IMG/VR virus record: IMGVR_UViG_3300028603_000021
Location: 32,001 to 96,000 of that record
Strand: one strand, 5' to 3'
DNA: 64,000 nt
Source of the DNA: a virus
Lineage: Duplodnaviria > Caudoviricetes
Shown here: positions 2,962 to 51,736 of the stretch, one piece after another
Layout of the letters: each line of letters starts with the position of its first letter
How positions within the stretch are numbered: position 1 is the first letter of the stretch
Program-made: the position numbers and the translations under genes
Notes under the pieces: generated by a model
Databases searched by the model: none
Seen by the model: only the letters and a program-made list of their open reading frames with translations
What the model was told of the DNA's origin: nothing

Positions 2962-3011
2962 GGTCTTTGGTTTGAATCCAGACACGCCACGTGGAGGCAG
3001 ACCTTGTGTCC
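2962..3011 (-). ncRNA. minimal HDV-like (theta-type) self-cleaving ribozyme #1
   Basis: GGACAC-AA-GGUCU-GCC-UCCACGU-GGC-GUGUCU-GG-AUUCAAA-CCAA-AGACC: P1 with G1-U wobble, P2, P3, L3 with CC:GG P1.1, J4/2 cytidine; no P4. Confidence 0.85.
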
Positions 3012-5258: not shown

Positions 5259-5295
5259 TGCTTTACCTCCTTTCCTCTATACTATCACTAGTCAG

Positions 5296-6545: not shown

Positions 6546-7573
6546 CAGAGAGCCTCGATGTGGTACCTGTAGACAGCGTTAGCAGTGTGGCTCAGGTCAA
6601 GCTTCTCAGCGAAGTAGTATTCTAGGTTGTCTCTGCCATAACCCAAGGCCTCAGCAAGGTCAGCATAGCTGTTCGCTACTTTACCCTTCATGCTGTAGCT
6701 AGAGACAGCACCCTTAAGCTCTGCAATAAAATCCTCGTAGTAGCCGTCTTCATCCTCTTGGATGTCGTAGTCTTCTGCGCTGAGGTCGTCGTTGTAGAAA
6801 AGGTCATCCCACGCCTCGTTGAGTTCTGAGGTTCTTACTACATAGCGGCAGACACGCACCTTGGCATTATCGTAATCAAGGGGCACCGACACTACGTCTC
6901 GTGGGTTTACCTCCACACCCACCAAGCGCGGCGCAAACCCAGTCGCGTACTGGTAGCTGCCGACGTGCAACCCGACATCACAGGCTTTTGTTGCGTCGGA
7001 GCTTACTCGGCTGCGTGGAAACTCAACCACGTTACCTACCGCATTATCCAAGCGTCCATGCTCGATAACTTCCCCGTTCACGATGCCGTAACCAGCATGG
7101 ACTGAAAAACCATCCGTGTTTACGCCCTTGTAAGCAAGGAAATTTCCCGAAGCCGTGATAGAAAGACCGTGCCTCGTCAAGAAGTTGTAGAGCTGCTCAC
7201 GGCTCTCCGCGTTAGGGTTCTGCATCAAGTTCTCAAGGAAGTTGAGCATAGGGGTGATGTTTTCGTAGCCGCGCCTGTAGCGTTCGGCAATCGCATCACT
7301 CAGAACCCCAGGAAGAACTTCACCATCGAAGTAGATTCCTCCGTTGTCACCGTATGAGATACGGTCTGTGAGTGCTTCGAGGTAGGTAGCGATGTTACTC
7401 CCAGGTGTGTTGAGCAAGTCACGAAGGTCTTCTTCGCTCACTCCGGAAATCAGAGCCTCGACAATCTTCCGAGAGCGTGGGTGGTCTCCACGGATCACGT
7501 GGAGACTCCCGTCCTCTAGAGTTACCGATGCTGTCGTGTTGTCGTTGCTTGAAGTTATAAGGTATGAATACAT
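6545..7573 (-). CDS. rIIB: rIIB-like protein
   Basis: ITASGNFLAYKGV..VGNVVEFPR..ACDVGLHVG..VEVNPRDVVSVPLDY..KVRVCRY motifs; follows rIIA. Confidence 0.88.
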   Translation of the reverse strand: MYSYLITSSNDNTTASVTLEDGSLHVIRGDHPRSRKIVEALISGVSEEDLRDLLNTPGSNIATYLEALTDRISYGDNGGIYFDGEVLPGVLSDAIAERYRRGYENITPMLNFLENLMQNPNAESREQLYNFLTRHGLSITASGNFLAYKGVNTDGFSVHAGYGIVNGEVIEHGRLDNAVGNVVEFPRSRVSSDATKACDVGLHVGSYQYATGFAPRLVGVEVNPRDVVSVPLDYDNAKVRVCRYVVRTSELNEAWDDLFYNDDLSAEDYDIQEDEDGYYEDFIAELKGAVSSYSMKGKVANSYADLAEALGYGRDNLEYYFAEKLDLSHTANAVYRYHIEAL

Positions 7574-11273: not shown

Positions 11274-11635
11274 TGGTGGACTCGTCGGCTTCGCAGCCGA
11301 GTCCTGAACTCTTATCCCAAGGTTGTCTACATGTGTATCTGTTTTATATGTTCGCCATGAAAACAGCAAAACCGGCTAGCTCTATGTACGTGCCTTCTTA
11401 TCAGAGCTTTTCAGGGGCACGCCCTCTAAGTTGACGGTTACAGAGTAGAGGAGTCGTCTGTAACCCGCCTAGCTTACGCGGCTAGGGCTTGAGGCTGTGA
11501 CGCTCCGAGGAAAACCCACGGAAGCGTTTCAGAAGTTTTGTCAGTTAGACTTTTTCCAGATTTTTAACGAGGCCATCCGGAACCCTCGACATGCTAACCT
11601 TGTCTTCAGAGCCCAGTCGAAACTGTTTCGAGCCC
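11274..11635 (-). ncRNA. ssrA: tmRNA
   Basis: GGGCTCG/CGAGTCC-ACCA acceptor with G3-U70, TTCGAC, GCATGTCGAGG pk1 region, tag ORF 11542-11474 (A)DKTSETLPWVFLGASQPQALAA*. Confidence 0.93.
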
Positions 11636-12200: not shown

Positions 12201-13511
12201 TCACAGCACAAACAGCAGCACAACCGAAAATGCGGCTATAATCCAGAGAGTCAGTGGCATTGTTTTTCTCATGGCAGCGCGGATTACCGTATAGGACACG
12301 ATGCCAAGGACTATACCTGTGGTGATGCTGTATGTGAACGGGATAGCTACCATGGCGATGAAAGCGGGTACTGAGTTAGAGTAGTCTCCCCAGTCCATGT
12401 CCTTGAGCGTGGTAATCATGAACAAACCGACAAGCACGAGTACGGGGGCGGTGGCTACGCTCGGGATAAACACCAGCAGCGGAGCAAAGAACATGAAGGG
12501 CAGAAACAACAGTCCTGTTACGACAGCAGTAAGACCCGACCTACCACCTTCGGCTACCCCAGAAGCAGACTCGATGTACGCAGTACCAGGCGAGCTGCCG
12601 GTAAGACCTGAGATAGTTGTAGACACAGCGTCTACCATCAGCGCTTTCCCGATGTTCTTAGCTTCTCCCTTGTCGTCTACAAGACCTGCGGCCTTAGAGA
12701 CACTCATGAAGGTTGATATACTATCGAACATGTCAGTAAACAGAAGAGCAAACACAGGAGAGATAACAGCCACAGTCATCAAGCCAGCGAAGTCCAGTGC
12801 GAAGAACGCCTCTAGAGAGGGCGTAGCTACTACAGCAGTAGGTAGAGTCACACCTGTAGCGGCGGAAAACATGGGAACCAGCGCAGCTAAGACGGCCACC
12901 CCGATAACCGAGATTATCAAAGCACCCCTCACATGCAGTGCCAGCAGGATAGCGGCAACGACTAGACCGATCAAAAACAACCAGAAGACCGGGGAAGCCC
13001 CACCAAACGAAACCAAGGTGGCGGCGTTAGCTATGACAACTCCCGAGTTCTGTAAGCCGATGAACGCTAGGAACAGCCCGATACCGCCTGCGACTCCTGA
13101 CCTTATGCCTAGGGGTACAGCAGCTGCAATCTTTTCTCTGAGCCGCAGCTGTGGTAATGAGATTATCAAGAACACCACACCTGACAGAAACACAGCTGCT
13201 AGCGCGGTCTGCCATGTGAGTCCCAAGGTCAGCACCAACGTATACGTAAAGAAGGCGTTCAGCCCCATACCGGGGGCTAGGGCAATCGGTAAGTTAGCGA
13301 CGAACCCCATCAAGATGCTAGATAACCCCGCTACCAGCACCGTAGCAAACAGTGCAGCACTGAGTGGTATCCCAGCATCCGACAGGATGAGTGGGTTAAC
13401 GATGATGATATACGCCATCGTCAGGAAGGTGGTTATACCAGCCAGAACCTCGGTACGGATGTTCGTACCAAGGCTGTCCAGCTGGAATCGTTTAGTTAGC
13501 CAGTTTGTCAT
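12201..13511 (-). CDS. NCS2/AzgA-family purine (guanine/hypoxanthine/adenine) permease
   Basis: RTEVLAGITTFLTMAYIIIVNP, ALAPGMGLNAFF, YIESASGVAEGGRSGLT; many TM helices. Confidence 0.93.
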   Translation of the reverse strand: MTNWLTKRFQLDSLGTNIRTEVLAGITTFLTMAYIIIVNPLILSDAGIPLSAALFATVLVAGLSSILMGFVANLPIALAPGMGLNAFFTYTLVLTLGLTWQTALAAVFLSGVVFLIISLPQLRLREKIAAAVPLGIRSGVAGGIGLFLAFIGLQNSGVVIANAATLVSFGGASPVFWLFLIGLVVAAILLALHVRGALIISVIGVAVLAALVPMFSAATGVTLPTAVVATPSLEAFFALDFAGLMTVAVISPVFALLFTDMFDSISTFMSVSKAAGLVDDKGEAKNIGKALMVDAVSTTISGLTGSSPGTAYIESASGVAEGGRSGLTAVVTGLLFLPFMFFAPLLVFIPSVATAPVLVLVGLFMITTLKDMDWGDYSNSVPAFIAMVAIPFTYSITTGIVLGIVSYTVIRAAMRKTMPLTLWIIAAFSVVLLFVL

Positions 13512-13528: not shown

Positions 13529-14530
13529 TCAGTTGAACTCTTCCCCGGTCGCCTTCTTGGCGTACTTAGGGTTGATGAACTTAAGAATCAGTCTGGTACC
13601 TTTTGAGGTACGGCGAGGCTCTACGGGCTGCACAACACAACCTTCTCGGATGTGAAGCTCTCTACCGCTTACCTGCTCCATGCCCTTGGCCAGCTCTTCT
13701 GCTTTCTCCTCGCTGAATTCTCCCTCATACAGGATCGGGACACTAAGATACTCTAGCTCATCAGGCAACGGCAGCGACTGAGTGTTGTTTCTGTATTCGA
13801 ACAGCCGCAGGGTAGGCTCTGACTGCCCGTAGGTGTAACCCTTCTGGCATGGGATCATCTCTCCCACAAAATGATGTGTGGTATCGTTACTTAATGTAGC
13901 AAGCACCTCTTGCATACCGCTGTTGCGGAAAGCTTTCCAATAGGAGTTACCTTCGGACTCTTTGATAGCTAAACCACGCTTGAGCAAACCCTTGGAGGAA
14001 ATCCACACCTTACCGTCCCTGTAGATAACATTTTCCTGGGACCCGTGGAGTTTTTCTGAGATAACCACGGTTTCTCCAGGTTCCATGTCATCCTGAAATA
14101 TGCGGTAGTTATCTACGTCGTAGTACGTGATAAACGGTACATCAATTTCTTCGACTTCACCCTGTAGTTCTGTGGGGATAGGTCTGACATACTCCGTGAT
14201 GCCAAGCTTTTCTGATGTGTCTTCCCCTAAAGGTACGTTTGGCTTCAGATAGTCTGGCAGCGAGAGCACGACACCTTGTGAAAGCTCACCACGAAGCCTG
14301 ACCTCTTTAACACGGTTCTTTTCAGCACCAGTAAGGTAGTCTCGGAAAGGCTCAGCTAGCTCATCAGGCAGCAAACTATCCTTGGGGGCGAACAAGACGA
14401 CATCTCCGTCTTGGTACAAACCCTTCTGGACTACTAATGAATAAGTCCCTACCCTAGCGACCTCTAGCTTGTCTGCGTTAGGGTGGGGGAACAGTTTTAT
14501 CTCTTCTAGAGAAACTTTCCACTCTGACAC
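13529..14530 (-). CDS. ATP-dependent RNA ligase, DRB0094/Rnl5 family
   Basis: N-terminal HPNADKLEVA OB domain, RLRGELSQG, motif I EKLHGS, REGCVV, LKFINPKY. Confidence 0.9.
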   Translation of the reverse strand: MSEWKVSLEEIKLFPHPNADKLEVARVGTYSLVVQKGLYQDGDVVLFAPKDSLLPDELAEPFRDYLTGAEKNRVKEVRLRGELSQGVVLSLPDYLKPNVPLGEDTSEKLGITEYVRPIPTELQGEVEEIDVPFITYYDVDNYRIFQDDMEPGETVVISEKLHGSQENVIYRDGKVWISSKGLLKRGLAIKESEGNSYWKAFRNSGMQEVLATLSNDTTHHFVGEMIPCQKGYTYGQSEPTLRLFEYRNNTQSLPLPDELEYLSVPILYEGEFSEEKAEELAKGMEQVSGRELHIREGCVVQPVEPRRTSKGTRLILKFINPKYAKKATGEEFN

Positions 14531-15060: not shown

Positions 15061-15642
15061 TTATGAGGACTTCTTCTTTCTCCGGGATTTTCTCTCAGCG
15101 AAGACTACTTTATCGTAGTATTCCGTTATCTCTGGAACGGTAACTCCAAACCAAGCGCTTACCTCTTCGAGAAGCGCCATGTACGATGCCCTGAAATCCC
15201 CGTCAAATCTTTTAAAAAACTTAGCGGCAGTTATCTCCGTTATAGCTTGCCCTATATTTCTCTGGTACCCTGGGGTGCGTGGATGCACGATAACAAGATA
15301 CTTGTCATAGCCACGGAACTCATCACTCAGAGTCAAATCCTTCATAACACGTATGATCCTCTGCCTGCCACCGTGGTTAAGAGTGTTGTAGCGGTTTTTT
15401 ATCTCTGCGATCACCTTGCGGTCATGTGAGACAATATCAGCCCCTTCGATGTCTAGGTGAGTGAAGCCTAGAGCCTCTGCGGTCATGATCTCCATGAGCT
15501 TGCCTACATGGTTCTGCACTGTCTTCCTCTGACTCTCACTCAGGCCACCGAGACCATCAGATATAACCCCAGCGAGCAAGTCCTCAAAAAGCTCTCCTGT
15601 AGGTATTGTGAGTGTTTTTATGTAGTCTAACGCCTTACTCAC
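15061..15642 (-). CDS. Eco47II-like PD-(D/E)xK restriction endonuclease
   Basis: QKTVQNHVGKLME..ADIVSHDRKVIAEIKNRYNTLN. Confidence 0.65.
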   Translation of the reverse strand: MSKALDYIKTLTIPTGELFEDLLAGVISDGLGGLSESQRKTVQNHVGKLMEIMTAEALGFTHLDIEGADIVSHDRKVIAEIKNRYNTLNHGGRQRIIRVMKDLTLSDEFRGYDKYLVIVHPRTPGYQRNIGQAITEITAAKFFKRFDGDFRASYMALLEEVSAWFGVTVPEITEYYDKVVFAERKSRRKKKSS

Positions 15643-17240
15643 AGCTCGATCTCCCACGTAGTCGTACCAGCATGGTACAGGGGGTATATGTTTTTGCTCT
15701 CTAGAAAACCAGGGCTACCGTCGTAGTCCGGAAACAGACCTGGCAGTTTATGCTTCTGGAAAGCCTCCCTAGGGTACACTTTACCACCACTGACAAAGTA
15801 TATAGTGTAAGGATGCCTAGCAACAACCTTGAACCCCAGTGTAGCATAAGCGTCACCCGACGCATACCGATTAGCGGAGTGCGTCCTCAGTCTTCCGTGT
15901 ATGTTTGACAGCAGCTTAGACATGCCTCCGACTACCTGGGTATCTAGCTTGGTAGCGAAGCGGTCTAGCACCTTAGCTCCTCGTCTTGTGCTCACCCCCA
16001 TAACAGCCACTAGCTCGTCACCGTAGAACAGACCCAGCTTGGTTCTGGAGTTTATCGCGCCCTGTAGGTGGTTGTCTTCTAGGAAACCTCTGTAGTCTGC
16101 GGGGGTTAGCTCCTTGGTCTTTGTCTTCCTGGCATACAGCCTCCTAGAAAACATCCCAAGCTTGGCTTTTATCATGGATTTGATGATAGGAAGCTTGTCA
16201 TTAACCTCTGTATCGAAGAACTGAAACAGATGTAAACCAGCAGCAGAGGCCAAATCCTGCTTACTCTGGTGGTAATACCTGTCCTTGCCACGCTCCGTTA
16301 CCGTGCTGTGCCAGTAGGCTCCGTCCACTTCTACACCCACCCTCTCCATCAGGATATCAACTTCCAGACCGCCTAAAACATCACGGTCGCCAACGGTGTA
16401 AGGTATACCTACATCATCCAACCACTCAGTTAGAATTAATTCTTGAGCACTGACTCCTCGATAGTGGTTTGGGTGTCCGTGGCCATTTAGGTGTGTGTTG
16501 GGTCGCTGTAGGAAATCACCCAGAGTTGGGTGTGTTATCACTACCTTGTCCAACGCGCTCTTATACTCTACTTTTGAATAATCGTAAAGGTTCCCATGTA
16601 CCTGACGTGCCTTCGCTTCAAAGGTCTCAGCGGCGCTCTGATCCTTCTTGGCAGCCCTTCTCTTATCTCCGTATCCTTGCAGGTGTCCTACTGGCTTCTG
16701 CCAGAACTCTCCGTGTTCTCGGTCAACTATACATACCGGCACATCGTGGCCACGGTACTCTACCTTGGAGTAATCATATAGATCCCCGTGAACCTCTCTG
16801 GCCTTCTCTATGAAAGTAGCCGTAGTATACGTGTTGGCAGCTGCTCGCTGTGTTCTGCCTCGCTCTGGGCTCCCTCTCCCGCGTAGGTGGGCGTTAGGTG
16901 TCTGTGTGAACTCACCGTAATCTGGGTCTACTATAGTAACAGGTGTTTTGCTGTTGACATAGTTTACCTTAGAGTAGTCATACAGGTCTCCGTGCACTTC
17001 TCTGGCTTTCTTGACGAACTCAGCGGTGCTGTTGCTGAGCTTTGCCCTTACCTTTTCCAGCCCACGCAATCTGTGCCCTTGCCCAGACAGGTGTAAGTTA
17101 GGCTTCTGCCAGAATTCCCCGAACTCTGGGTCTACTATGAGCACTTTTACGTGGGCTCCTTTGTATTCTACCTTAGAGTAGTCGTAGATGTCACCGTGTA
17201 CCTTACGTGCATCTTCTATAAACTGCTCTGTGGTCTTCAT
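15639..17240 (-). CDS. Hef-like putative homing endonuclease with DUF723-type repeats
   Basis: Four FIEKAREVHGDLYDYSKVEY repeats, LEVDI..VEVDGAYWHS nuclease domain, C-terminal GNAT-like module. Confidence 0.8.
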   Translation of the reverse strand: MKTTEQFIEDARKVHGDIYDYSKVEYKGAHVKVLIVDPEFGEFWQKPNLHLSGQGHRLRGLEKVRAKLSNSTAEFVKKAREVHGDLYDYSKVNYVNSKTPVTIVDPDYGEFTQTPNAHLRGRGSPERGRTQRAAANTYTTATFIEKAREVHGDLYDYSKVEYRGHDVPVCIVDREHGEFWQKPVGHLQGYGDKRRAAKKDQSAAETFEAKARQVHGNLYDYSKVEYKSALDKVVITHPTLGDFLQRPNTHLNGHGHPNHYRGVSAQELILTEWLDDVGIPYTVGDRDVLGGLEVDILMERVGVEVDGAYWHSTVTERGKDRYYHQSKQDLASAAGLHLFQFFDTEVNDKLPIIKSMIKAKLGMFSRRLYARKTKTKELTPADYRGFLEDNHLQGAINSRTKLGLFYGDELVAVMGVSTRRGAKVLDRFATKLDTQVVGGMSKLLSNIHGRLRTHSANRYASGDAYATLGFKVVARHPYTIYFVSGGKVYPREAFQKHKLPGLFPDYDGSPGFLESKNIYPLYHAGTTTWEIEL

Positions 17241-18196
17241 CGTTCCTTGGGGTATGAAGGTAGGTTGGGGTTTAGCTTGTGGAATACCTTAAGCAACTCC
17301 CGCGTCTCCTTCTTGTCCTTCCCCTGGATGTATACATACTTATGCTTCGCCGGTATCTCTCGAACATCAGCTAGCTTGTACATCTCACGAGACCTGTCTC
17401 GCAGTGCTTTCTCAACGTCTAGTGGCATATTCTTCCAGACAATCTTATCTCCTACCTGCCACTCTGGATTCCAGTCTATGCCCAGGTCTTTAGCATAGCG
17501 TTTGTACGCACTACGGCTGCGAAAGCTCCTGTCAGATATCCATTTCTTAGTACCGGGCAGGCGGTACTTATGTGTTGCGCCAGATGTCTGGCCTAAGTAC
17601 GTAAAGTTACATGCCTGATAAATAGTCCCAAGTTCTTTTGCCTCGGGGTCAGAGTAGGCTGTAAAGACCCTGAACCGTGTGTTCTTCACAGCCCACCTGA
17701 TTGCATACATGATAAGTGACGACGCTAGGTTCTTGGGAGACCAGCTGACGCAAGCACCACGGCTTATGAGTCTCTCAATCTTCCTAGTGCCGTCACCGAC
17801 CAGCTTAGAGAACGCATTAGGCATGTCCATAACGACAACACCCGCAAGGATTCCCTTGTATCTGGCCGTAAAATAATGAGTCGGGTAGTTGGAGAGCTTT
17901 CCAAGCCACTCGTGTCTCTCGATAAATTCCTTTACTTCTGGGAAAAGAGTCTGGTAGTCGGGGTGTTCCTTCGTAAACTGACTGAACTCAAAGTCTGCGA
18001 CACGTAACGTGTCAGCTTCTTCTTGAGACAGACCAGCAGCCTCAAGGTCAGATTCCATGTTAGACAGACGTATCTCATACTGCCAAGCGTGATCTTTGTT
18101 GTAATCTTTAAACCTCTCACTCGGGTCTGACGACATCTTGTTCTCCATAGTCAACAGTATAGTGGTATTCGGTCTTGCTGTCAAGCGGGATGACAT
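17237..18196 (-). CDS. Mom-like DNA (adenine) modification enzyme, GNAT fold
   Basis: FIERHEWLG..LAGVVVM..LISRGAC..KNLASSLI..TAYSDPEAKELGTIYQACNFTYLG. Confidence 0.75.
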   Translation of the reverse strand: MSSRLTARPNTTILLTMENKMSSDPSERFKDYNKDHAWQYEIRLSNMESDLEAAGLSQEEADTLRVADFEFSQFTKEHPDYQTLFPEVKEFIERHEWLGKLSNYPTHYFTARYKGILAGVVVMDMPNAFSKLVGDGTRKIERLISRGACVSWSPKNLASSLIMYAIRWAVKNTRFRVFTAYSDPEAKELGTIYQACNFTYLGQTSGATHKYRLPGTKKWISDRSFRSRSAYKRYAKDLGIDWNPEWQVGDKIVWKNMPLDVEKALRDRSREMYKLADVREIPAKHKYVYIQGKDKKETRELLKVFHKLNPNLPSYPKER

Positions 18197-20627: not shown

Positions 20628-21902
20628 TTAGCCCCCGTCCTTCCAGACCAGGACGGGCTTTGTACGAAACTTCAGCACACCTATTCCGGTGTCCTCGATT
20701 ACCTTAACTACCTCGTCAAAGTTCTTGTAGGCTCCAGAGGACTCGTCTATCGGAACGTCTTCGAAGTTGCCCATGATACCGGCTTCTTCAAGCTCCAGGT
20801 TAACTACGTCTTGGTCGAGAATCTTCTTTGCGTTGCCCCTTGACATCGTGCGCCCTGCGCCGTGGGGTACTGAGTCGCCGTAGCTAACGTTCCCAGGAGT
20901 GAAGATCGCACTACCGTCCTTCATGTTGCCGAGGACGACCATAGGGATTCCGTTGTTGTCGTACGCTGGAATAGTACCTTTACGTCCAATGTATTTACCA
21001 TTACGATACTCTATGAAGTTGTGAGGAATGTGAGAGAACTCGTTAACCCCTTGGTGGAAGACCCTGGCTACCGCTTCGTGTACCATGTAATGATTGTATG
21101 TTGCTATCTCTAGCATGGCTCGGTTAAAGGTGTAGTACACCTGTCCCAGCGCAGACTCGGCTGGCACATAGATTAGGTCATTAGCCAATCTTCCGCCCCA
21201 CGAGGATATTTCCTTCTTGATGGTGGCGTCAAAAACCCTAGCTAGCTTGTTGCCGAGTCCACGCGACCCGAAGTGAGAGGCTACGAAGTTCTGGCCTATG
21301 TCATTCTTCTCGATTGAGAGGAAATGGTTGCCTCCGCCGATGGTGTTGAACTGCTTCAACATGTTCTCGGTGAGGTTGTAGGTCATCAGCTTCTTGAATT
21401 CTTTGTAGTGTGGAGTGTCGCGCTCTTTCCATAGGGGTTCGTAAGAGTTGACCCATGCGCCCTCTGGACGCAGGTACCCGTCAACTATCTCCTGGAATTT
21501 GGCAGAGGTCATACCGGTGTCCCTTAGCTGGTTTCCAACCCCAACGGCCTCGGACACCTGACGGATAGCTTCACGCTTCTCCTTCTCCGATAGAGAGTCC
21601 ACATTGATGTTAATCTCGGACATCCCGACAGAGCACGCGGGGTCAACCCCAACGGTGTCAGGATACAAGTGTGTCGAGGACTCTAGGGTGGTGCCGATAG
21701 CGACCCCGTAGCCGAAGTGGGAGTCCGGCATTACCGAGACCTTTTCAATGCCCGGAAGTTCCATAGAAGCACGCACCTGTGTCAACGCTCCGTACTCGTA
21801 CTCTCCAAACAGCTGGTCGTTCATGACCAGGGTTGCCCATACGTTACCATGGCGCATCTTGTATATATTCCCCGCTTTGAACGGTTCAAATATGTCTGAC
21901 AT
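20628..21902 (-). CDS. rtcB: RtcB-family RNA ligase (2',3'-cyclic-P/3'-P to 5'-OH)
   Basis: MPDSHFGYG, GVDPAC, GGGNHF, HFGSRGLG, HNF, RKG, HGAGR, DESSGAYK. Confidence 0.93.
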   Translation of the reverse strand: MSDIFEPFKAGNIYKMRHGNVWATLVMNDQLFGEYEYGALTQVRASMELPGIEKVSVMPDSHFGYGVAIGTTLESSTHLYPDTVGVDPACSVGMSEININVDSLSEKEKREAIRQVSEAVGVGNQLRDTGMTSAKFQEIVDGYLRPEGAWVNSYEPLWKERDTPHYKEFKKLMTYNLTENMLKQFNTIGGGNHFLSIEKNDIGQNFVASHFGSRGLGNKLARVFDATIKKEISSWGGRLANDLIYVPAESALGQVYYTFNRAMLEIATYNHYMVHEAVARVFHQGVNEFSHIPHNFIEYRNGKYIGRKGTIPAYDNNGIPMVVLGNMKDGSAIFTPGNVSYGDSVPHGAGRTMSRGNAKKILDQDVVNLELEEAGIMGNFEDVPIDESSGAYKNFDEVVKVIEDTGIGVLKFRTKPVLVWKDGG

Positions 21903-21916
21903 ACCTCGTTCCTTTC

Positions 21917-22216
21917 TTACCAACACCCCTTAAACACATGGTGTGCCTCCAGGCCAGGGTAAAACCAGTACGGGTTGCCGTTGCGAAGCTCAACCTCTGC
22001 AAAGCTAGACGGATCTCCCGGGTATGCTTCGAAAAACCTAACGTTTTCTTTACCATCAAACTCATCCTGGTAAGCAAATATCGCTTGCTCTATAGAGTTC
22101 GTGATGCTCATGCCGCCGTGTTCGGAAGATTCATCGACGAACAAGACCAACTCCTCTTTCTCCACAACATGACAGTGAATATCCCTACCAAACGAATCTT
22201 TGTAGTACAAACGCAT
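21917..22216 (-). CDS. hypothetical protein
   Basis: GMSITNSIE motif; AGAAAGGAG RBS. Confidence 0.65.
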   Translation of the reverse strand: MRLYYKDSFGRDIHCHVVEKEELVLFVDESSEHGGMSITNSIEQAIFAYQDEFDGKENVRFFEAYPGDPSSFAEVELRNGNPYWFYPGLEAHHVFKGCW

Positions 22217-22861: not shown

Positions 22862-23068
22862 TTATGTGATGGTTCCTATAAGTACGAAAAAGACGACCAC
22901 TATCACCCCGAGCAAAGCCATCACACCGATGACTGCGAAGAAGGCGAGCGCAACAGCTATAGGAAGCCAAAGCGGTGAAAAAACCCACCACCACGACCAC
23001 GAGATTACTCCCGTCAATTTCAGGATTAGAAAGATGAGTGTGAGTGCCCAGAGAACAGAATCTCTCAC
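22862..23068 (-). CDS. small membrane protein
   Basis: LTLIFLILKLTGVISWSWWWVFSPLW, a common phage TM motif. Confidence 0.7.
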   Translation of the reverse strand: MRDSVLWALTLIFLILKLTGVISWSWWWVFSPLWLPIAVALAFFAVIGVMALLGVIVVVFFVLIGTIT

Positions 23069-23712
23069 AAGGCTACCTGTGTCCCCTCGTTGAGGCATCG
23101 GAAAGTCACACCCCCTAGCTTAATCTCGGCATTTACGTGATAGTGCCCAAAGTACCAGTTCTTGACGTTCGGCAGCGCTTCCCAGAGCATGGATAACCCC
23201 TCTCCGGTGCGAGTGTTATAGATCTTTCTTCCCGGTAACAGCCGTGTAGTCACTTCACTCGGGCAGTCGTGAGACACCACCGTATGAACACTTCCCAGGT
23301 TAGGCAGGCGAAGGATGTCATCCCATTCCTCCCGGCTGAGTTCTTCCTCCGGCCACCAGTCTACCCCCGTCACGCGAGTGTTAGGCCACGCCCCAGTAAC
23401 ACCGTCAATGCTCCATGCTCCGCCAACATACATGATTCCATCCTCGATAGTTCCGTCTGGTATGTACGAAAAACCAGGATGCCTGAATTCTTTTACCTTG
23501 TGCGGGTTATCGTGGTTACCGCGTATAAACCTAAAGTACGGGGGCTTATCTATAGTTTTCGCATACAGCTCAAGATGTGCGTCTGCCGTTTCAGAGAAGC
23601 CGATACCCACGTCACCGACAAGGATTATCTGGTGGGCGTCGCTATGAAGCTTTCTCAGGCTCGGCAACCAGTATGTATGACCATGCAGGTCACCGACTAG
23701 TACAGTCTTCAT
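23065..23712 (-). CDS. calcineurin-like metallophosphoesterase
   Basis: GDLHG, VGD, RGNHD, SHDCP, FGHYH. Confidence 0.92.
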   Translation of the reverse strand: MKTVLVGDLHGHTYWLPSLRKLHSDAHQIILVGDVGIGFSETADAHLELYAKTIDKPPYFRFIRGNHDNPHKVKEFRHPGFSYIPDGTIEDGIMYVGGAWSIDGVTGAWPNTRVTGVDWWPEEELSREEWDDILRLPNLGSVHTVVSHDCPSEVTTRLLPGRKIYNTRTGEGLSMLWEALPNVKNWYFGHYHVNAEIKLGGVTFRCLNEGTQVAL

Positions 23713-44626: not shown

Positions 44627-45496
44627 TTGAGCATACAAGACGCAAGAGAAAAGCTTGAGTTTGCAGAAGCGCACCCAGATATATTCGATCCAGTCAAGGT
44701 TCTAGACAAAGGGTTCGTAAGACTCGTAGACTGGTACGGCACCGACTCGCGTATCGCTGAGGCGGCGCGTGTGTCTTACAAAGGTGGCACCAAAGCGGTG
44801 AGGAACGATGCCGGTCTGGTTGACTACCTCATACGTCACTCACATACTAGCCCTGTAGAGCAGGTTGGCGTGACCTTCCACATCAAAGCCCCTATATTCG
44901 TGGCTAGACAGCTCTTTCGACACAGAACCAGCTCGATAAACGAGATAAGCGCTCGATACTCGGTTGTGGAGGAGGAATTCTATGTTCCAGCAAAGGCAAG
45001 AGCCCAAGATTCAGTCAACAAGCAAGGGAGTGTCTTCGACGAGCGTCTGAGCAGCCCTAAGATGAAGGCTATCGTTGAGGAAGTGGACAACATCTCTTAC
45101 TCTGCGTATAAATCTCTGCTGAAAGAGGGCGTAGCGAGAGAAATGGCCAGGATAGTGCTCCCGGTTAACCTCTACACGGAGTTCTACTGGAACCAGAACC
45201 TACATAACCTTCTGCACCTCATACGGCTCAGGGTTGACGAGCACGCACAGTGGGAGATACGTCAGTATGCCGAAGAAATGTACCTGACGGCTAAGATATT
45301 GTTCCCTGGGGCGGTTTCCTCATGGGAAAACCACACCAAAAACTCGGTAAAGCTGTCGGGACATGAAGTAGAGATGCTTCATGAGACACTTACTCCAGAC
45401 ATCTTAGAAGCATTGCTGGAAACTGTTGAAAAAAGTGACCTTCCTTCTGGCATCAAAAGGGAAACTTCGGAAAAGTTTAAAGCCCTGGTGAAGTGA
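44627..45496 (+). CDS. thyX: flavin-dependent thymidylate synthase
   Basis: HTSPVE, RQLFRHRTSSINEISARY, AREMAR, HAQWEIR. Confidence 0.95.
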   Translation: MSIQDAREKLEFAEAHPDIFDPVKVLDKGFVRLVDWYGTDSRIAEAARVSYKGGTKAVRNDAGLVDYLIRHSHTSPVEQVGVTFHIKAPIFVARQLFRHRTSSINEISARYSVVEEEFYVPAKARAQDSVNKQGSVFDERLSSPKMKAIVEEVDNISYSAYKSLLKEGVAREMARIVLPVNLYTEFYWNQNLHNLLHLIRLRVDEHAQWEIRQYAEEMYLTAKILFPGAVSSWENHTKNSVKLSGHEVEMLHETLTPDILEALLETVEKSDLPSGIKRETSEKFKALVK

Positions 45497-46578
45497 TGGA
45501 CGAGATCTTTGCTGGGCTAGATACTGTCCTGAAGATAGTAGACACAGACTCTGATGTCTTGATACAGTCTTTCGGGACTAAGCTCTATGTGGCCTCGAAC
45601 AACGAATACCACGCAGCGATACATGAGGTTGTTACTGATACAGAGCCATTCCGTATAGTCTTGGAAGGAGAAAGTGCAAAACAGCTCCACAAAGCATTCT
45701 ACGGTGGTAGCATCTCTGTAGACGACAACATACTTACTGTAGACAGCGACGGGTCGTCTGCTGAGTTCCTCGGTCTCACAGGTAAAGAAAAGCTTACGGT
45801 CAAACGCTTAGGAGCTAAGTACACAGCAGATGACCCCGTAAGTATCGAGCCGACAGAACTACTCAGATTGTTTTCCGAAACAAAGCACGCAGCAGGCAGC
45901 CGTGATGTAGGGGATGTGCGCTTCACTGGGTATCACATCTGCATAGGTAGCTCGACTTTAGAGGTCATGGCCACTGATGGGAGTGTTATATCCTTGACAG
46001 ATGCGAAGGCTACCTACCACGGAGACGACGCTCACACCTTAGTGGTTGGGGAGGAGTTCTCGGTGGTTCCTGCTCTGATGCCAGGGGCTGAAAAAGCACT
46101 GTTGGCCTGGAAGGAAGGTACTATATCGACTACCTTCACTAAAGGTAAAGAGACCTTGAGGGTAGTTTCTAACATCATAGCCCAGTCACCGATACTTTAC
46201 CAAGAAGTCGTAGAAAAAACCGTCAGTGCGAACACCAACGAGTATATCATACCTCGCTCAGACTTCGTTACCGCACTCAACAAGGTAATATTCTTCACCG
46301 GAGACGACCAGAAGCAGAGGATAGACATCGAGGTAGAGGGCTCGGTCTGTACTTTCAGGGCTAAGAACAACAAAGGTTCTGTCACAGCGATTTCTGCCAT
46401 AACTCCGCTGGTTACTGAGCACGAAAAGCTTAAGTTCGGGATAAATCTTACATACCTTCTAGCGTTCCTGAAATCAACGAAGTACGAGGACATACACCTG
46501 TGGGTTAACACCGACAAAACTCCGATATTGTTTACTACAGGCACAGGAAAGGAGATAATCGCCGTTTTCAACACTTGA
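45493..46578 (+). CDS. dnaN: DNA polymerase III beta-type sliding clamp
   Basis: ~360 aa three-domain pattern, VMATDG, FGINLTYLL, KTPILF. Confidence 0.8.
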   Translation: MMDEIFAGLDTVLKIVDTDSDVLIQSFGTKLYVASNNEYHAAIHEVVTDTEPFRIVLEGESAKQLHKAFYGGSISVDDNILTVDSDGSSAEFLGLTGKEKLTVKRLGAKYTADDPVSIEPTELLRLFSETKHAAGSRDVGDVRFTGYHICIGSSTLEVMATDGSVISLTDAKATYHGDDAHTLVVGEEFSVVPALMPGAEKALLAWKEGTISTTFTKGKETLRVVSNIIAQSPILYQEVVEKTVSANTNEYIIPRSDFVTALNKVIFFTGDDQKQRIDIEVEGSVCTFRAKNNKGSVTAISAITPLVTEHEKLKFGINLTYLLAFLKSTKYEDIHLWVNTDKTPILFTTGTGKEIIAVFNT

Positions 46579-46603
46579 CAGCCAAAAGGATACCTGCTAT
46601 ACT
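46575..46603 (+). promoter_or_regulatory. promoter for small ORF and ssb
   Basis: TTGACA-17 nt-TATACT with extended TG. Confidence 0.8.
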
Positions 46604-46638
46604 AGCGTCATACCCACATTTGGGTGAAAGGATAAAAC

Positions 46639-46854
46639 ATGACAAACACACTTGAACGTCAACCATCAGCTTCTTCTCTCACACTACGTGAGAACTTCGA
46701 CGCATTCGTCGCAGCCTTTGAGGACGAGTTCCGTGCACAAGCAACAAAGAAGAACGAAGCCTCAGAACGCAGGATGCGTAACCTACTCCGTAAGTTCACC
46801 AAGCAAGTCTACGAGCCCTACAGGGACACGACACTCGGAAGGAACCGCGAGTAA
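46639..46854 (+). CDS. small protein, weakly Hc1/histone-H1-like
   Basis: KNEASERRMRNLL motif; GAAAGGA RBS. Confidence 0.45.
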   Translation: MTNTLERQPSASSLTLRENFDAFVAAFEDEFRAQATKKNEASERRMRNLLRKFTKQVYEPYRDTTLGRNRE

Positions 46855-46860
46855 CCACCT

Positions 46861-47580
46861 ATGAATGACGTAACTTTGAGTGGGATTATAAGCGGATCGT
46901 TTCAGGAGTACGGTAACGACGGAATCCTGTTTAAGGCTGTTGTATCGGCTGGCAGTAACAACAGCGATGAATTCACGTGCTTAGCTTTCAGCAACAACGC
47001 CTCCTTCATCAAGCACAAGGGTAAGAGTGGTCAGCGCATCGTTTTCCAAGGCAGACTAGGTAGCGATAAACTCGGTACGGAAAACTACCACAGTGCCCTT
47101 ACTGTGGGTCGAGTCCTTGCGATAACTGACTCCGACAACGGTACTGACTCTGCATCTATCGTAGTCACAGGAGAATCCGAAGTACAGGATATCCGATACG
47201 TTGGGCAGAAAGAGACACCGTTGGTTCCCATCAAGATGACCAACCTCAGAAGCTTCCGAGGACGAGACGGGCAGACCAACACTTACAAGACATTCATCGG
47301 TGCCTCCGCATGGTCTGACAGGGCTGTGGCATTAAACGCTTCGTCTCCAGAGGGTGTCTACCCGCTGGTAGTCTCAGGATTCCTGAGGTCTAGGAACTAC
47401 GAGAACCAGGACGGCGACACCATCGAAAAGATTGATGTATGGGTGCAGGAGGTTCTACAGGGAGAAGGGCTCTTCGGTGACGAAGACTCCTCCCCGGCGG
47501 AGACTTCTAAGCTCGAGAAAAGCAGCAAAACCGAGAAGAAAGAGCCACGACGCGCTGCCGTTGACGACGCTCCTTTCTAA
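46861..47580 (+). CDS. ssb: single-stranded DNA-binding protein with two OB folds
   Basis: Two OB-like repeats (VFQGRL; VSGFLRSRNYENQDG), acidic tail DDAPF. Confidence 0.85.
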   Translation: MNDVTLSGIISGSFQEYGNDGILFKAVVSAGSNNSDEFTCLAFSNNASFIKHKGKSGQRIVFQGRLGSDKLGTENYHSALTVGRVLAITDSDNGTDSASIVVTGESEVQDIRYVGQKETPLVPIKMTNLRSFRGRDGQTNTYKTFIGASAWSDRAVALNASSPEGVYPLVVSGFLRSRNYENQDGDTIEKIDVWVQEVLQGEGLFGDEDSSPAETSKLEKSSKTEKKEPRRAAVDDAPF

Positions 47581-47602
47581 ACACGAGGGTAATTCCCTCG
47601 TA

Positions 47603-47658
47603 GACTCGCAGACTGATTGCCTCCACGTGGCGCGAGTTGGGTCAAGCTAAACATCAGT
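47603..47658 (+). ncRNA. minimal HDV-like self-cleaving ribozyme #2
   Basis: GACUCGC-AG-ACUGAU-U-GCC-UCCACGU-GGC-GCGAGUU-GG-GUCAAG-CUAA-AC-AUCAGU: 7-bp P1 with G1-U, P2, P3, P1.1, J4/2 CUAA. Confidence 0.87.
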
Positions 47659-47659
47659 A

Positions 47660-47795
47660 CGGTTCGTGGTTGACACCCACACTGAAAACCGCATGGAAAA
47701 GGCACTCGCTCAGGATAATGGTTCAAATTCTTCCGATAAATAGCACTCGACTAGGTGGAAGCCCAAACAGAGTGTGGCGGGTGCCTGGAACATGC
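47660..47795 (+). ncRNA. unassigned structured RNA between ribozyme #2 and dNMP kinase
   Basis: GCATG/CATGC plus AGGCACTCGC/GCGGGTGCCT closing stems, inner GCACTC/GAGTGT stem, two T-loop-like motifs. Confidence 0.55.
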
Positions 47796-47811
47796 ACGAG
47801 AAAGGGGTAAG

Positions 47812-48339
47812 ATGCTAGTAGGTATATCGGGCAAGAAAAGGGTAGGGAAAGACACATTCTACCAGCTGTCAAAAAGCCACTTAGAACACAAAGTTCCAGG
47901 CATAAAAGTAAGAAAATACTCCTTTGCAGATGCAGTTAAGCAGTACGCTGTAACATATTTTAAAACTAACCCAGAAGATAAAGAAGTAACTAGGTACATA
48001 CTACAGGGCATCGGACAGATGATGCGAGATGTTGTACGTAAAGACTACTGGATAGAGAAAGTACTTAACCTGTACGAACTAGATGTGCTAGTCGGAGGTG
48101 TTGACGTAGGGTTTGTCACCGATGTACGCTACACAAACGAAGCTGATATCTTCCACGACGACGATCTGTTGGTCAGAGTCACAGCACCCATCCTCCACTC
48201 AGACCCCCACCCCAGCGAAACAGCTCTGGATAACTATCACTTTGAGTACATGATAAACAACGATGGAACACTAGAAGAGTACAAAAGAAAGGTGGAAGAA
48301 TGGACGGACAAGATGATACTCCCCAGATTGATGAAGTAG
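47812..48339 (+). CDS. deoxynucleoside monophosphate kinase
   Basis: GISGKKRVGKDT, SFADAVK, RYILQGIG, TDVRYTNE, HPSETALD. Confidence 0.9.
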   Translation: MLVGISGKKRVGKDTFYQLSKSHLEHKVPGIKVRKYSFADAVKQYAVTYFKTNPEDKEVTRYILQGIGQMMRDVVRKDYWIEKVLNLYELDVLVGGVDVGFVTDVRYTNEADIFHDDDLLVRVTAPILHSDPHPSETALDNYHFEYMINNDGTLEEYKRKVEEWTDKMILPRLMK

Positions 48340-48911
48340 CCGCTATGCAAAACACGATACTAGCAATGGTGACCGGTGAAACTCCTGCACCAGGTAGGTC
48401 TGTAACCAGTGATCTCATAACTCCCAAGATAACCTTCGAGAAGCTTCTAGACACAGCGGTGATTCCAACACACCACGGTGAGTCTCAGCACGACAACGTA
48501 GGCATGGACTTCTACGCCGCTGAAGATGTTAACTGGAGGCGGGTATTCCATGAAAACACCGTTGGTCATGCAGATGTCATCCAGAAGTCTCCTTCCATAG
48601 TCTCTGTTGCACTAGTGCGCACCGGGTTGCGTGTAGCCCTACCACCAGGGATGCACCTCAGGTTTGCCTCGCGGAGCGGGTTAGCTACAAAGTCACTTGT
48701 CTATGCATTTCCCGGGACAGTAGACTCTTCGTTTCGCGGAGAGCTTATGATACAGCTTCTTGCTTTCGGAACGCATCCGCCCTACCTGAAAGCTGGGGCT
48801 AAGATCGCTCAGGGGATAGTTTTCCGAAGCGAAAGCTATAACATCTTCGAAGGTAAGGTCTCTCTAGATACATCCCGTGGGGAGGCAGGTTTCGGGAGCA
48901 CCGGACTGTGA
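48300..48911 (+). CDS. dut: trimeric dUTPase
   Basis: GMDFYA, SRSGLA, GTVDSSFRGE, IAQG, RGEAGFGSTG. Confidence 0.93.
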   Translation: MDGQDDTPQIDEVAAMQNTILAMVTGETPAPGRSVTSDLITPKITFEKLLDTAVIPTHHGESQHDNVGMDFYAAEDVNWRRVFHENTVGHADVIQKSPSIVSVALVRTGLRVALPPGMHLRFASRSGLATKSLVYAFPGTVDSSFRGELMIQLLAFGTHPPYLKAGAKIAQGIVFRSESYNIFEGKVSLDTSRGEAGFGSTGL

Positions 48912-49183
48912 TGCCTATCTACGACTACAAGTGCCGAGAATGTGGTAACATATGGGAAGTAGAACACTCGATATCGGTGGATGACGCTGTGGAAGAACTA
49001 GGACTGAAATGCCCAGAATGTGGGTCACAAGACATCTTCAAGTACCTGGGCAAGCGCAAGAGCCTTACAGTCAAGTTTATCGGCACTGGGTGGTACATCA
49101 ACGATTCAGCTTTAGAAGCCGCTGGGATGCCAGAAGCTACCAGAAACAGCCCGGAGACCAAGAAGCGTTTGTTCAGAGACTGA
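48908..49183 (+). CDS. FmdB-family zinc-ribbon protein
   Basis: MPIYDYKCRECG..CPECGS..FIGTGWYIND. Confidence 0.88.
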   Translation: MMPIYDYKCRECGNIWEVEHSISVDDAVEELGLKCPECGSQDIFKYLGKRKSLTVKFIGTGWYINDSALEAAGMPEATRNSPETKKRLFRD

Positions 49184-49193
49184 GGAGGGTTAT

Positions 49194-50867
49194 GTGCTGT
49201 CAGAGATACTAGAAAAAGTTGACTTCGTTGCCCTCGTGTCACGAAAAATCTCTCTAACAAAGACCAAGCCAGATTCTTACAAGGGGCTTTCTCCGTTCAC
49301 GAACGAGAAAACCCCAAGTTTCTTTGTGAACGCTCACTCTAAGACGTGGTATGACTTCTCTGCTGGTAAGGGCGGGGGAGTTATCGACTACGTGATGCAG
49401 ACAGAAAACATCTCTAAGGAGGGTGCAGTTGCCTTCTTAGCAGACCTCGTAGGCATAGAGATAGAGCAGAACCACCACCTGACTCCACTGAGGAAGATAG
49501 TCAAACTGAGCTACGACTTTTTCCTAGAGCACGCGGAGCAAGCTTACCCGTACATGAAGTCTCGGGGGTTTTCTGTAGACACGCTGAAGCGCTACGGGGT
49601 GGGATTCGCCCCGGACGGAAACAAGACACTTATAGACCATCTTCTTGCGGCTAAGTGTAAGTCAGACGACATAGTTGCAACTGGAGTCGGGTACATCAAC
49701 AACGGAAGGCTGCTGTCTAGATACCAAAACAGAGTGGTTTTCCCGATAAAAGACGCCTATGGCACTATAGTTTCGTTTACGGGCAGGGCAACCGACGCAA
49801 CCCATCACGCCGCACCGCGTTACGTCCACGGTGCTAGCTCTCCGATATTCCGCAAGAAGGAAGTCGTTTGGAACCTGAGCAGCGTAAGAAACCTTATCGC
49901 TGAGCATAACATGGTTATCGTGTGTGAAGGTCAGATGGATGCGTTGTCTGTGTGTGAAGCCGGTCTTCCTGGCGTGGCGATACTAGGTTCCAACCCCACC
50001 AACGAGCAGATAAAACTGCTTGCTGGAGCAGCAGCAAACATCTACTTTGTCTTCGACTCTGACTCTGCTGGTGAAAAAGCGCTGCTAGAAGCCTTCAAGG
50101 TCGCAGAAGACACTGGGGTAGACTCCGTTCTGTACTCTATAGTGCTCCCGGAGAAAGAAGACCCCAACTCGTACTTACAGTCACACTCCACGGAAGACTT
50201 CTTGTCATTAGTAACTAACGCCAGGTCAGACACCTCTGCTATCATCCGTGCACTCATCAAGAAAAACTTGGGAGCTAACCGCACCAGAAGCCAAGTAGCT
50301 AGCGCTGTCATACGCGAGCTAGCGCCTTACGTTCAGAGTAAGCTCAGCTACCGTGGTTTAGACTTAGTAGAGCGAGCTTCTCAGGAGTTCAGCATAGACC
50401 AGCGCCAGCTACAGCAGATGATCCAGTACAAAAACGCCGACAAAGTGTCTGCACTGGATCTGGATAAGATGACATTCCCAGCACCGATATATGAAAGACG
50501 CATACTCTATTTCGTTCTAGACAACCCTAGTAACATCATAGAGTTCAGGAAAAGCGGGATTTCTTACCTAGACTTTGAATCCTCGCTCGTGAGCAAGGCC
50601 TTAGAAACAGTTGACCCGACCATGGACTCAGCTGCTGTGTTCGACGCCTTGAAAGACGCCCTTGAAGAGGAAGAATACTACACGATACTGGAGTTTTACT
50701 CGAAGGGTCTAGACGGGTCGTTCACGACAGCGCTAGAGGTCATGCGGGGGATGGTGCTCAAGAGAACCAGAGACGCTAAGAACGATTTCCTCGGGAGGTC
50801 TACGCCAGACACGGACTTCATCAGAGAGAAAAGGCGAGAACTTAAGGAAAAGTTAGGAGCAAGATGA
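49194..50867 (+). CDS. dnaG: DnaG-type DNA primase
   Basis: PFTNEKTPSF, RVVFPI, FTGR, VCEGQMDA, FDSDSAG, DP. Confidence 0.93.
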   Translation: MLSEILEKVDFVALVSRKISLTKTKPDSYKGLSPFTNEKTPSFFVNAHSKTWYDFSAGKGGGVIDYVMQTENISKEGAVAFLADLVGIEIEQNHHLTPLRKIVKLSYDFFLEHAEQAYPYMKSRGFSVDTLKRYGVGFAPDGNKTLIDHLLAAKCKSDDIVATGVGYINNGRLLSRYQNRVVFPIKDAYGTIVSFTGRATDATHHAAPRYVHGASSPIFRKKEVVWNLSSVRNLIAEHNMVIVCEGQMDALSVCEAGLPGVAILGSNPTNEQIKLLAGAAANIYFVFDSDSAGEKALLEAFKVAEDTGVDSVLYSIVLPEKEDPNSYLQSHSTEDFLSLVTNARSDTSAIIRALIKKNLGANRTRSQVASAVIRELAPYVQSKLSYRGLDLVERASQEFSIDQRQLQQMIQYKNADKVSALDLDKMTFPAPIYERRILYFVLDNPSNIIEFRKSGISYLDFESSLVSKALETVDPTMDSAAVFDALKDALEEEEYYTILEFYSKGLDGSFTTALEVMRGMVLKRTRDAKNDFLGRSTPDTDFIREKRRELKEKLGAR

Positions 50868-51736
50868 ACACAAAAGATTACCTGTTCTCTGCGTCCTCTT
50901 ACAAGGAGTACCAGCAGTGTGGGTTAAAATTCCGCTACAAGCGAGTAGATAAGATTCCATCTGGCGACGAGATCTCTCATCACAGATGGTTTGGACGGAT
51001 CGTGCACGACCTGGTTTACATCGGTCTAGCCGAGAGGAACGGCAGCAAAGACTACACCCTCAGAGACAAAGCTCAGAAGAGGTATGCAACCTCTCTGGTG
51101 GCCGGGATATGGGACACACGACCCAAAGACGAGACGGCTAAAGCTGTCATGGAGGGGGCTGGGGATAAACCAGAAAACTTCTTCCCCGGTAAGATACAGT
51201 CTTTACAAGGCACTCCCTCGGCTATAGAGAAAGGCTGGGAAAAACAAGCCAGAACTATGGTAGGAAACGGGATAACTGCCCTAAGCCCTATCCTCAACGA
51301 TATCATAGAGATAGAGGCTAAACTCCTCTGGAAGTGGCACGACAGACGGTTCATAGGGTACGTGGACATCATATCCAAGGAAGACGGCAAGATTCACTTC
51401 TATGACCTGAAAACCGCCTGGAACAAGCCCGGCAAGAGCCTAGAGAAAGACTTTCAGTTCTACAGCTATTCTCTGGCTCTGAAGGAAAAGTATAACCTAG
51501 ACTACTACCCGACAGGACACTGGGTACATCTCAAAGACGGGTCTGTGCTAGATTTTGATGTAACGCAAGAGATAATCGACTACCACGACAAAGATGCAGA
51601 CCAGCTGTTCGAAAGGCTAGAGAACGATGTATTCCCAGCGAGCCTGGGAAGCCCGTTATGCAGGTTCTGCGACTACAGAAACCTGTGCTACGGAGAAGAT
51701 TTCGACTGGGAAGGGTGGAAACCAACGCTATGGTGA
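50864..51736 (+). CDS. PD-(D/E)xK (RecB/Cas4-like) exonuclease
   Basis: SASSYKEYQQC, GYVD, DLKT, QFYSY, CRFCDYRNLC. Confidence 0.88.
   Translation: MNTKDYLFSASSYKEYQQCGLKFRYKRVDKIPSGDEISHHRWFGRIVHDLVYIGLAERNGSKDYTLRDKAQKRYATSLVAGIWDTRPKDETAKAVMEGAGDKPENFFPGKIQSLQGTPSAIEKGWEKQARTMVGNGITALSPILNDIIEIEAKLLWKWHDRRFIGYVDIISKEDGKIHFYDLKTAWNKPGKSLEKDFQFYSYSLALKEKYNLDYYPTGHWVHLKDGSVLDFDVTQEIIDYHDKDADQLFERLENDVFPASLGSPLCRFCDYRNLCYGEDFDWEGWKPTLW

Follow-up and report, generated by a model that had tools for sequence, protein, structure and literature searches.

Why does a predicted self-cleaving RNA lie between two replication genes of a phage, tens of kilobases from any tRNA? The locus that raises this question is contained in a 64,000-nt stretch of DNA (hereafter the window, to which all coordinates refer unless stated otherwise) from an IMG/VR virus record of 190,018 bp that is judged complete. 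A row of same-strand replication genes occupies 45493-51736 (+) in the order clamp-like gene, orf71, ssb, dNMP kinase (dnmk), dUTPase (dut), zinc-ribbon protein, DnaG-type primase, and PD-(D/E)XK nuclease. A sigma70-like promoter with 11 of 12 consensus matches and an extended -10 element (46575..46603, +) lies ahead of orf71 and ssb, and the transcript containing the ribozyme likely starts there. The ssb gene (46861..47580, +) encodes a 239-aa protein of the Pfam SSB family (PF00436) and ends with a stop codon at 47578-47580 (+). The first downstream cistron is dnmk (47812..48339, +), for which ATG 47812 was chosen by comparison with the N-termini of relatives, and the ssb-dnmk spacer is 231 nt long. 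From ssb to the primase gene, neither a plus-strand terminator nor another promoter is predicted, in agreement with the operon setting in the original prediction, which was made from the letters of this DNA; the ribozyme sits inside one same-strand gene row.

Immediately 3′ of ssb is a hairpin (47583..47601, +) in which 47583-47589 pairs with 47595-47601 to give 7 bp and a 5-nt loop, with an energy of -11.1 kcal/mol. Considered as an intrinsic terminator, it is followed by no U run and is unlisted in the terminator scan. Only A47602 separates it from a 56-nt minimal HDV-like (theta-type) ribozyme (47603..47658, +), assigned from its pairings and its fit to the family. The self-cleavage site predicted from the ribozyme family (47602..47603, +) lies 5′ of G47603, which is position 1 of P1; the cut would fall 22 nt past the ssb stop codon and 1 nt past the hairpin. 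Both the distance to the stop codon and the hairpin without a U-tract ending 1 nt before the predicted cut had been put forward previously, and the coordinates and the sequence agree with them. The whole of 47581-47658 had also been presented as the ribozyme: 47603-47658 stands as such, whereas 47581-47602 is upstream flank and hairpin.

The canonical order of the nested double pseudoknot, with P1, P2, P3, and P1.1, is present at 47603-47658 (+), and its pairings were checked by script. P1 joins 47603-47609 with 47632-47638 in 7 bp, with G47603·U47638 as the closing pair at the cut, and is separated from P2 by a 2-nt J1/2. P2 joins 47612-47617 with 47653-47658; it is only 6 bp long and is adjoined by a U·C mismatch. 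P3 joins 47619-47621 with 47629-47631 (3 bp), with a 7-nt L3 at 47622-47628, and P1.1 is formed by two base pairs, C47623 and C47624 with G47640 and G47639. A 6-nt L4 (47641-47646) is followed by J4/2 (47647-47652), which opens with C47647, the catalytic position. The metal-binding reverse-wobble nucleotides U47622 and G47627, the P1.1 cytidines C47623 and C47624, and the catalytic C47647 are all present, and the layout, as read from the sequence, is that of a minimal HDV-like ribozyme without a single exception.

The published theta ribozyme layout (supplementary table of PMC10879173) is matched block for block by 47603-47658: the site shares with theta ribozymes the 7-bp P1, 2-nt J1/2, P2, 3-bp P3, 7-nt L3, the two G residues of P1.1, the 6-nt L4, the J4/2 with the catalytic C, and the length of 56 nt (Kienbeck et al. 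2024, PMC10879173). All four theta ribozymes assayed in vitro in that study were active, and activity was killed by a C-to-U change; the exact sequence of the ribozyme described here was not found in those parts of the supplements that were searched (PMC10879173). We gathered theta ribozymes from viral contigs by a sequence-pattern scan, in which 85 of the 91 analysed matches had both P1 and P2, and trained a covariance model on 62 distinct phage theta ribozymes, none of them from this phage. The site matches the model over its full length with 54.2 bits (E 7e-13), a score that is partly circular because the training set was gathered with a pattern that the site also fits, and the independent evidence for the predicted ribozyme is the pairing of P1 and P2. 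Across the family alignment P1 covaries, with 164 double-change cells compared with 50.7 in shuffles, and none of 500 shuffles reached the observed value. The cut-adjacent P1 pair in the same alignment is G·U in 33 sequences and G-C in 14, and the L3 of the site is the invariant L3 of the 62 phage theta ribozymes.

Scanned with a descriptor, the whole 190-kb genome gave only two sites, and 20 shuffles gave none. The 15-nt core likewise has exactly two copies in the window, 47618-47632 (+) and 2985-2999 (-), where 0.08 matches would be expected in the shuffled window, and 0 of 100 shuffles gave two. The claims of an HDV-like ribozyme and of a core duplicated on opposite strands were therefore upheld, the former by the complete set of core nucleotides and pairings together with the theta model score, the latter by the search of the window against shuffles. 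At gathering thresholds, the only Rfam matches in the window are tRNAs and a tmRNA. The Rfam HDV models RF00094 and RF02682 match the site end to end with 20.7 and 20.5 bits, compared with gathering scores of 50 and 44, and RF02682 was recorded as the best Rfam match there (20.5 bits, E 0.09); these scores fall below threshold. The models expect a full P4, which is absent in minimal variants. The minimum-free-energy fold has a z of -0.4 and does not show P1, the method being unable to model pseudoknots. From this anatomy and family fit, we consider it very probable that the RNA at 47603-47658 self-cleaves. The minimal P4, as read here, is too small for a ligand-sensing domain, of which there is no sign; the ribozyme is probably constitutively active.

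The second copy of the core belongs to a sister, ribozyme 1 (2962..3011, -), which has the identical 15-nt core, a 6-bp P1, and a differing P2 and J4/2. P1 and P2 of the two ribozymes are wholly different and yet complementary, as had been noticed before, and the pairings hold in both. Ribozyme 1 lies about 80 nt behind a tRNA-Met and likewise after a hairpin, and it is a partial match to the theta covariance model, with 18 bits. By ARAGORN and Rfam no tRNA lies within 42 kb of 47603-47658, the nearest being at 4704, which agrees with the earlier statement that none is nearby. The tRNA-associated class of theta ribozymes cuts no more than 5 nt from a tRNA 3′ end; the site described here does not, and its upstream partner is an mRNA hairpin, unlike the tRNA context that gives the theta subgroup its name (PMC10879173). 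It belongs to the "isolated" class of that study, which comprises 526 occurrences, mostly in sense orientation and in non-coding sequence, with a function that the authors give as unknown (PMC10879173). Among our 85 canonical theta ribozymes, 47 lie next to a tRNA called by ARAGORN and a further 22 or so have a T-arm motif upstream; several of those that are tRNA-free follow a hairpin that ends 0-2 nt before the cut.

The viral contigs also contain HDV-like ribozymes in other settings. Ribozymes of the ribozyme-1 type, with a 6-bp P1 and about 40 nt of conserved upstream sequence, are found in L004, L005, L008, L010, L016, L022, L028, L036, and L045, and several of these have, within about 10 nt downstream, a sequence resembling the 5′ half of a long-arm tRNA. 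At the head of tRNA arrays in L015, L020, L026, L027, L030, L035, L043, and L044 are HDV-like ribozymes that have a full P4; in those eight loci the ribozyme starts about 15 nt past a promoter-like -10 element, and cleavage would remove a very short leader, giving the array transcript a 5′-OH. [quoted passage not shown] An isolated theta ribozyme on another viral contig (L106, 1218-1610, -) is located about 110 nt upstream of a Cas_csx3-family gene.

Relatives of the phage were found by a protein search with its SSB (44-55% identity), and six contigs were compared. The gene order Thy1, clamp-like gene, small orf, ssb, dnmk, (dut,) zinc ribbon, primase, and nuclease is kept in all six. Their ssb-dnmk spacer (n = 6) is only 64-77 nt long and contains, in every case, a strong GC-rich hairpin and then a ribosome-binding site. 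Hairpin energies in the relatives range from -18 to -30 kcal/mol, stronger than the -11 found here, and a U-tract follows the post-ssb hairpin in two of the six; with so few U-tracts, the ancestral post-ssb element may never have been a true terminator. A search of the six relatives with the theta covariance model, in line with the earlier proposal to look downstream of ssb in related phages, detected no ribozyme (0 of 6). In the phage studied here the ribozyme, a 47-nt tail, the core of a folded RNA, and a short 3′ spacer account for about 210 of the 231 nt, and because the spacers of relatives are 64-77 nt, we read ribozyme, tail, and folded RNA as a lineage-specific insertion. We read it as sitting directly behind the hairpin position common to all six relatives. 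The 7-bp hairpin followed by an unpaired A is reminiscent of tRNA-ribozyme junctions, and we considered whether it is a remnant tRNA acceptor stem; we do not take this as the principal interpretation, since ribozyme-free relatives have a hairpin there and nothing T-arm-like precedes it. The sole close relative, contig L017, is 99.3% identical and has 0 substitutions in 47581-47811, which leaves no within-lineage test of selection. A 39-nt stretch in the dnmk/dut overlap region (48369-48407) is present in the window and missing from L017.

The tail behind the ribozyme (47659..47705, +; 47 nt) contains a small hairpin (47666-69/47677-80) and is homologous to the tail behind a gp32-associated ribozyme in contig L037: the local alignment score is 31, compared with 12.8 ± 2.5 in shuffles (n = 2000), none of which reached 31. 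A promoter within the tail was considered and rejected, the -35-like hexamer in the hairpin loop having no matching -10 and being absent from the promoter scan. The core of the folded non-coding RNA follows (47706..47779, +), with T-loop-like hairpins at 47713-15/47732-34 and 47744-48/47770-74; its whole extent is 47660-47795. The 74-nt core is 82% identical to an unannotated tRNA-array sequence of Klebsiella phages KP13-26, FKP3, and KP2025, in which it lies between tRNA-Phe and tRNA-Arg, and weaker copies are present in L014 (9588-9684, in a tRNA-Trp/tRNA-Gln gap) and L092 (about 5293-5347). Two helices of the folded RNA show compensatory changes. It matched no Rfam family and is present as a single copy in this genome, right behind the ribozyme. 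In the other phages it occurs without a ribozyme; here it is the apparent cargo downstream of one. The genes upstream of the ribozyme differ between phages (SSB vs gp32). The "Drum" RNA motif was also considered as a ribozyme-associated candidate and set aside: the published paper shows otherwise and Rfam gave no match.

Among the viral contigs with the 15-nt core, three related ones place the ribozyme behind a gp32-type single-strand-binding gene, whose protein family is unrelated to bacterial SSB. From the gp32 family 80 loci were fetched, of which 79 were analysable. Most of these consist of the gene, a conserved hairpin, a U run, and the ribosome-binding site of the next gene. An HDV-like ribozyme follows the gp32 hairpin in six of the 79, L148 (=L037), L151 (=L006), L152 (=L031), L211, L214, and L219, in each case between the gp32 hairpin and an accessory gene, and the six fall into two sub-lineages with only 68-69% identity between their gp32 proteins. 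Five of the six lack the U run and have the ribozyme directly against the hairpin; the sixth keeps the U run and has the ribozyme 56 nt further on. The descriptor and the theta model missed L211, L214, and L219 because L3 is 8 nt long there. The gene after the ribozyme is of the GmrSD_N type in five loci and encodes a HATPase_c_3 ATPase in one, and in other members of the gp32 family the slot of these accessory genes is empty or filled by other genes. Two of the GmrSD proteins are 31% identical, yet P1 of the ribozyme is unchanged. Within the family the ribozyme thus stays while the cargo varies, and some cargo occurs without it: GmrSD-type cargo has no ribozyme in three of the eight gp32-family loci that contain it, from which it follows that the ribozyme is dispensable for such insertions, and a fixed link between the two was rejected. 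In L018, an HDV-like ribozyme (6722-6773) is found 57 nt downstream of the gene for a crAss-like major capsid protein; its cut comes 1 nt past the end of a strong hairpin, and about 17 nt separate the ribozyme from the start of the following gene.

These comparisons bear on the proposal that the ribozyme replaces a terminator and thereby segments the operon. In favor of replacement, all six relatives have the hairpin, two of them have a U-tract, and the gp32 family has ribozyme-abutted hairpins that lack one. However, there was no straight swap behind ssb, the ribozyme having been added behind a pre-existing hairpin together with cargo. Operon segmentation is the best-supported reading of the comparative data and needs amending in the same two respects, in that the hairpin was there before and the cargo co-arrived. 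Our preferred explanation, which we put somewhat above even chances, is that a genuine minimal theta-type ribozyme was acquired in this phage lineage with a small non-coding insertion, whose 5′ boundary it forms, and segments the operon RNA.

In that event, transcription from the promoter at 46575 would read through ssb into dnmk, dut, and the primase gene, and the emerging ribozyme would fold into its nested double pseudoknot and cut between A47602 and G47603. Since cleavage by an HDV-type ribozyme takes place at the 5′ edge of the ribozyme itself and requires no upstream sequence, the upstream RNA would end exactly at the start of the ribozyme. The upstream product would be an orf71-ssb message ending in the 7-bp hairpin plus an A with a 2′,3′-cyclic phosphate, a 3′ end much like that left by a terminator or a processed stem-loop. 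Hairpins at 3′ ends are a barrier to 3′ exonucleases, and a cyclic phosphate end is not open to polyadenylation. The downstream product would have a 5′-OH on the compact ribozyme fold, followed by the T-loop-like RNA and the enzyme cistrons. A 5′-OH escapes the sensing of 5′-monophosphate by RNase E; in hosts with RNase J it can instead mark an RNA for decay, as in the case of glmS. The two halves of the operon would then decay independently, and downstream transcription would not be attenuated. We infer the cleavage itself and all of its consequences for RNA stability, including stabilization of the ssb mRNA and nuclease resistance of the 5′-OH product, the latter depending on the host. A translation-coupled switch, in which the terminating ribosome would melt the hairpin and free its 3′ arm to rival P1, was rejected on the pairing, which is 5 bp for the alternative compared with 7 bp.

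Several known systems share parts of this arrangement. Intercistronic stem-loops and terminators, such as that of gp32, define and protect the 3′ end behind a highly expressed gene by means of a hairpin, as here; unlike with those elements, the end at this site would come from self-cleavage in place of termination or a cut by a host nuclease, leaving transcription undiminished. For hammerhead and twister ribozymes located between operon genes, cutting of the transcript into pieces of different stability has been suggested but not demonstrated (PMC6765202). That proposed role is common to them and to the site, whereas the ribozyme class is different, and in contrast to hammerhead and twister, the HDV type cuts so that its upstream product is free of ribozyme sequence. 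The HDV-like ribozyme upstream of glmM in Faecalibacterium prausnitzii (RF02682) also belongs to the bacterial world and also lies inside an mRNA, but its P4 is full and a metabolite link has been proposed for it, whereas the site has a minimal P4 and no sensor domain.

A wider hypothesis, possible but held tentatively, is that the ribozyme is a portable read-through boundary module for promoter-less cassettes inserted behind the 3′ hairpins of genes with very high expression, such as ssb, gp32, and major capsid genes. The cassettes would be a folded RNA here and GmrSD-like genes in the marine gp32 phages. Loss of the U-tract would let transcription enter the cassette, and the ribozyme would restore the native hairpin end of the upstream message and free the cassette RNA. 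This would make it a prokaryotic counterpart of the HDV-like ribozymes of R2 and L1Tc, which mark the 5′ edge of a promoter-less inserted element and free it from the host co-transcript (PMC6765202). A likeness to R2 and L1Tc may lie in the sequence downstream of the ribozyme, which recurs in other phages (the folded RNA without a ribozyme there) while the upstream gene differs, but in the gp32 family the ribozyme is kept with varying cargo and some cargo lacks it; unlike R2 and L1Tc, there is no reverse transcriptase or sign of retrotransposition, and the cargo is a small folded RNA or, in the gp32 phages, a defence-type gene. We infer the mobility of the module from its patchy distribution only.

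The ribozyme might instead serve what lies downstream, making the 5′ end of the T-loop-like RNA at 47660-47795. In tRNA arrays elsewhere, the folded RNA would be freed by RNase P and tRNA 3′ processing, and the ribozyme would substitute for them here. The conservation of the folded RNA in the tRNA arrays of three Klebsiella phages (82% over 74 nt), its copies in L014 and L092, and the compensatory changes in two of its helices are in line with this, as are its single genomic copy right behind the ribozyme and the absence of both ribozyme and folded RNA from the six relatives; sister-type ribozymes, moreover, are often directly upstream of tRNA-like sequence in other phages. However, no 3′ processing signal, whether tRNA, ribozyme, or terminator, follows the folded RNA, which would remain part of the dnmk message unless separated from it by a host nuclease, and the ribozyme and its 47-nt tail would remain on its 5′ side after the cut. 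The gp32-family ribozymes, furthermore, precede protein genes, not folded RNAs. This is the leading alternative to our preferred explanation, and we consider the function unlikely as the main one. It is compatible with segmentation of the operon, since the cut is identical in both, and given the conserved folded RNA and the tail shared with L037, the same cut may equally free the 5′ side of the folded RNA.

We regard it as improbable that the ribozyme is an evolutionary passenger, a leftover of a tRNA-array or accessory cassette that may still cut but has no selected effect, or that is crippled here. Its sporadic distribution (none of the six relatives and only six of the 79 gp32 loci) would suit such an origin, as would the lack of spacer variation relative to L017 and the homology of its tail to the 5′ untranslated tail of the ribozyme-plus-GmrSD cassette of L037, which suggests a portable module common to both phages that has no gene in the present one. 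Yet all catalytic and pairing positions are intact, and ribozymes with the same P1 persist across gp32 proteins that are 68% identical and cargo proteins that are 31% identical; that P1 is kept in such diverged gp32 lineages argues for maintenance. A cut exactly 1 nt past the hairpin and the recurrent loss of the U-tract also look designed, not accidental. Finally, chance resemblance to a ribozyme, for which the subthreshold Rfam HDV scores and the pseudoknot-free fold lacking P1 could be cited, is extremely improbable in view of the two descriptor matches against none in shuffles, the two copies of the core against 0.08 expected, the 54 bits of the theta model, and the presence of both P1 and P2 in 85 of the 91 pattern matches.

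Published work already covers both the ribozyme class and members of it that are not associated with tRNA. In the literature that we searched, we found no description of HDV-like ribozymes downstream of ssb or gp32 genes, nor any mention of a U-tract being exchanged for a ribozyme. Of the published theta occurrences in annotated phage genomes, roughly 40% have no tRNA next to them and no assigned function. The ssb site is a simple testable case, combining a single promoter, a single hairpin, and a single ribozyme with two defined products, and the related phages amount to a natural experiment in which the same hairpin is followed by either a U-tract or a ribozyme. This alternation makes operon segmentation by self-cleaving RNAs directly testable. 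If segmentation is true, it would explain how phages can keep SSB high relative to the replication enzymes while downstream transcription is not lowered, and it would be a natural precedent for the ribozyme insulators of synthetic biology.

The genome also encodes enzymes that act on RNA ends. On the minus strand of the window are genes for RtcB (20628-21926; 195 bits), an RNA ligase with a PHA02142-type OB domain (13529-14530), and a metallophosphoesterase (23065-23712), and a PolyA_pol/CCA-adding-type nucleotidyltransferase is encoded at genome positions 163145-163519 (+). RtcB joins exactly the two types of end that such ribozymes make. Together, RtcB, the ligase, the phosphoesterase, and the CCA-type enzyme constitute an end-healing and sealing kit for RNA that fits ribozyme-made ends. 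RNA ligase and nucleotidyltransferase classes are enriched 140- and 250-fold, respectively, in theta-ribozyme phages (PMC10879173). A Ro60/Y-RNA partnership was considered for the T-loop-like RNA in a genome with RtcB and was rejected, as no Ro60 (TROVE) gene is present in the genome. In the same part of the window, a tmRNA at 11274-11635 (-) was detected by Rfam with 106.6 bits and was not called by ARAGORN, and the minus strand there also contains genes for a xanthine/uracil permease-family protein (12201-13511), an Eco47II-like nuclease (15061-15657), and a Mom-family protein (17237-18196).
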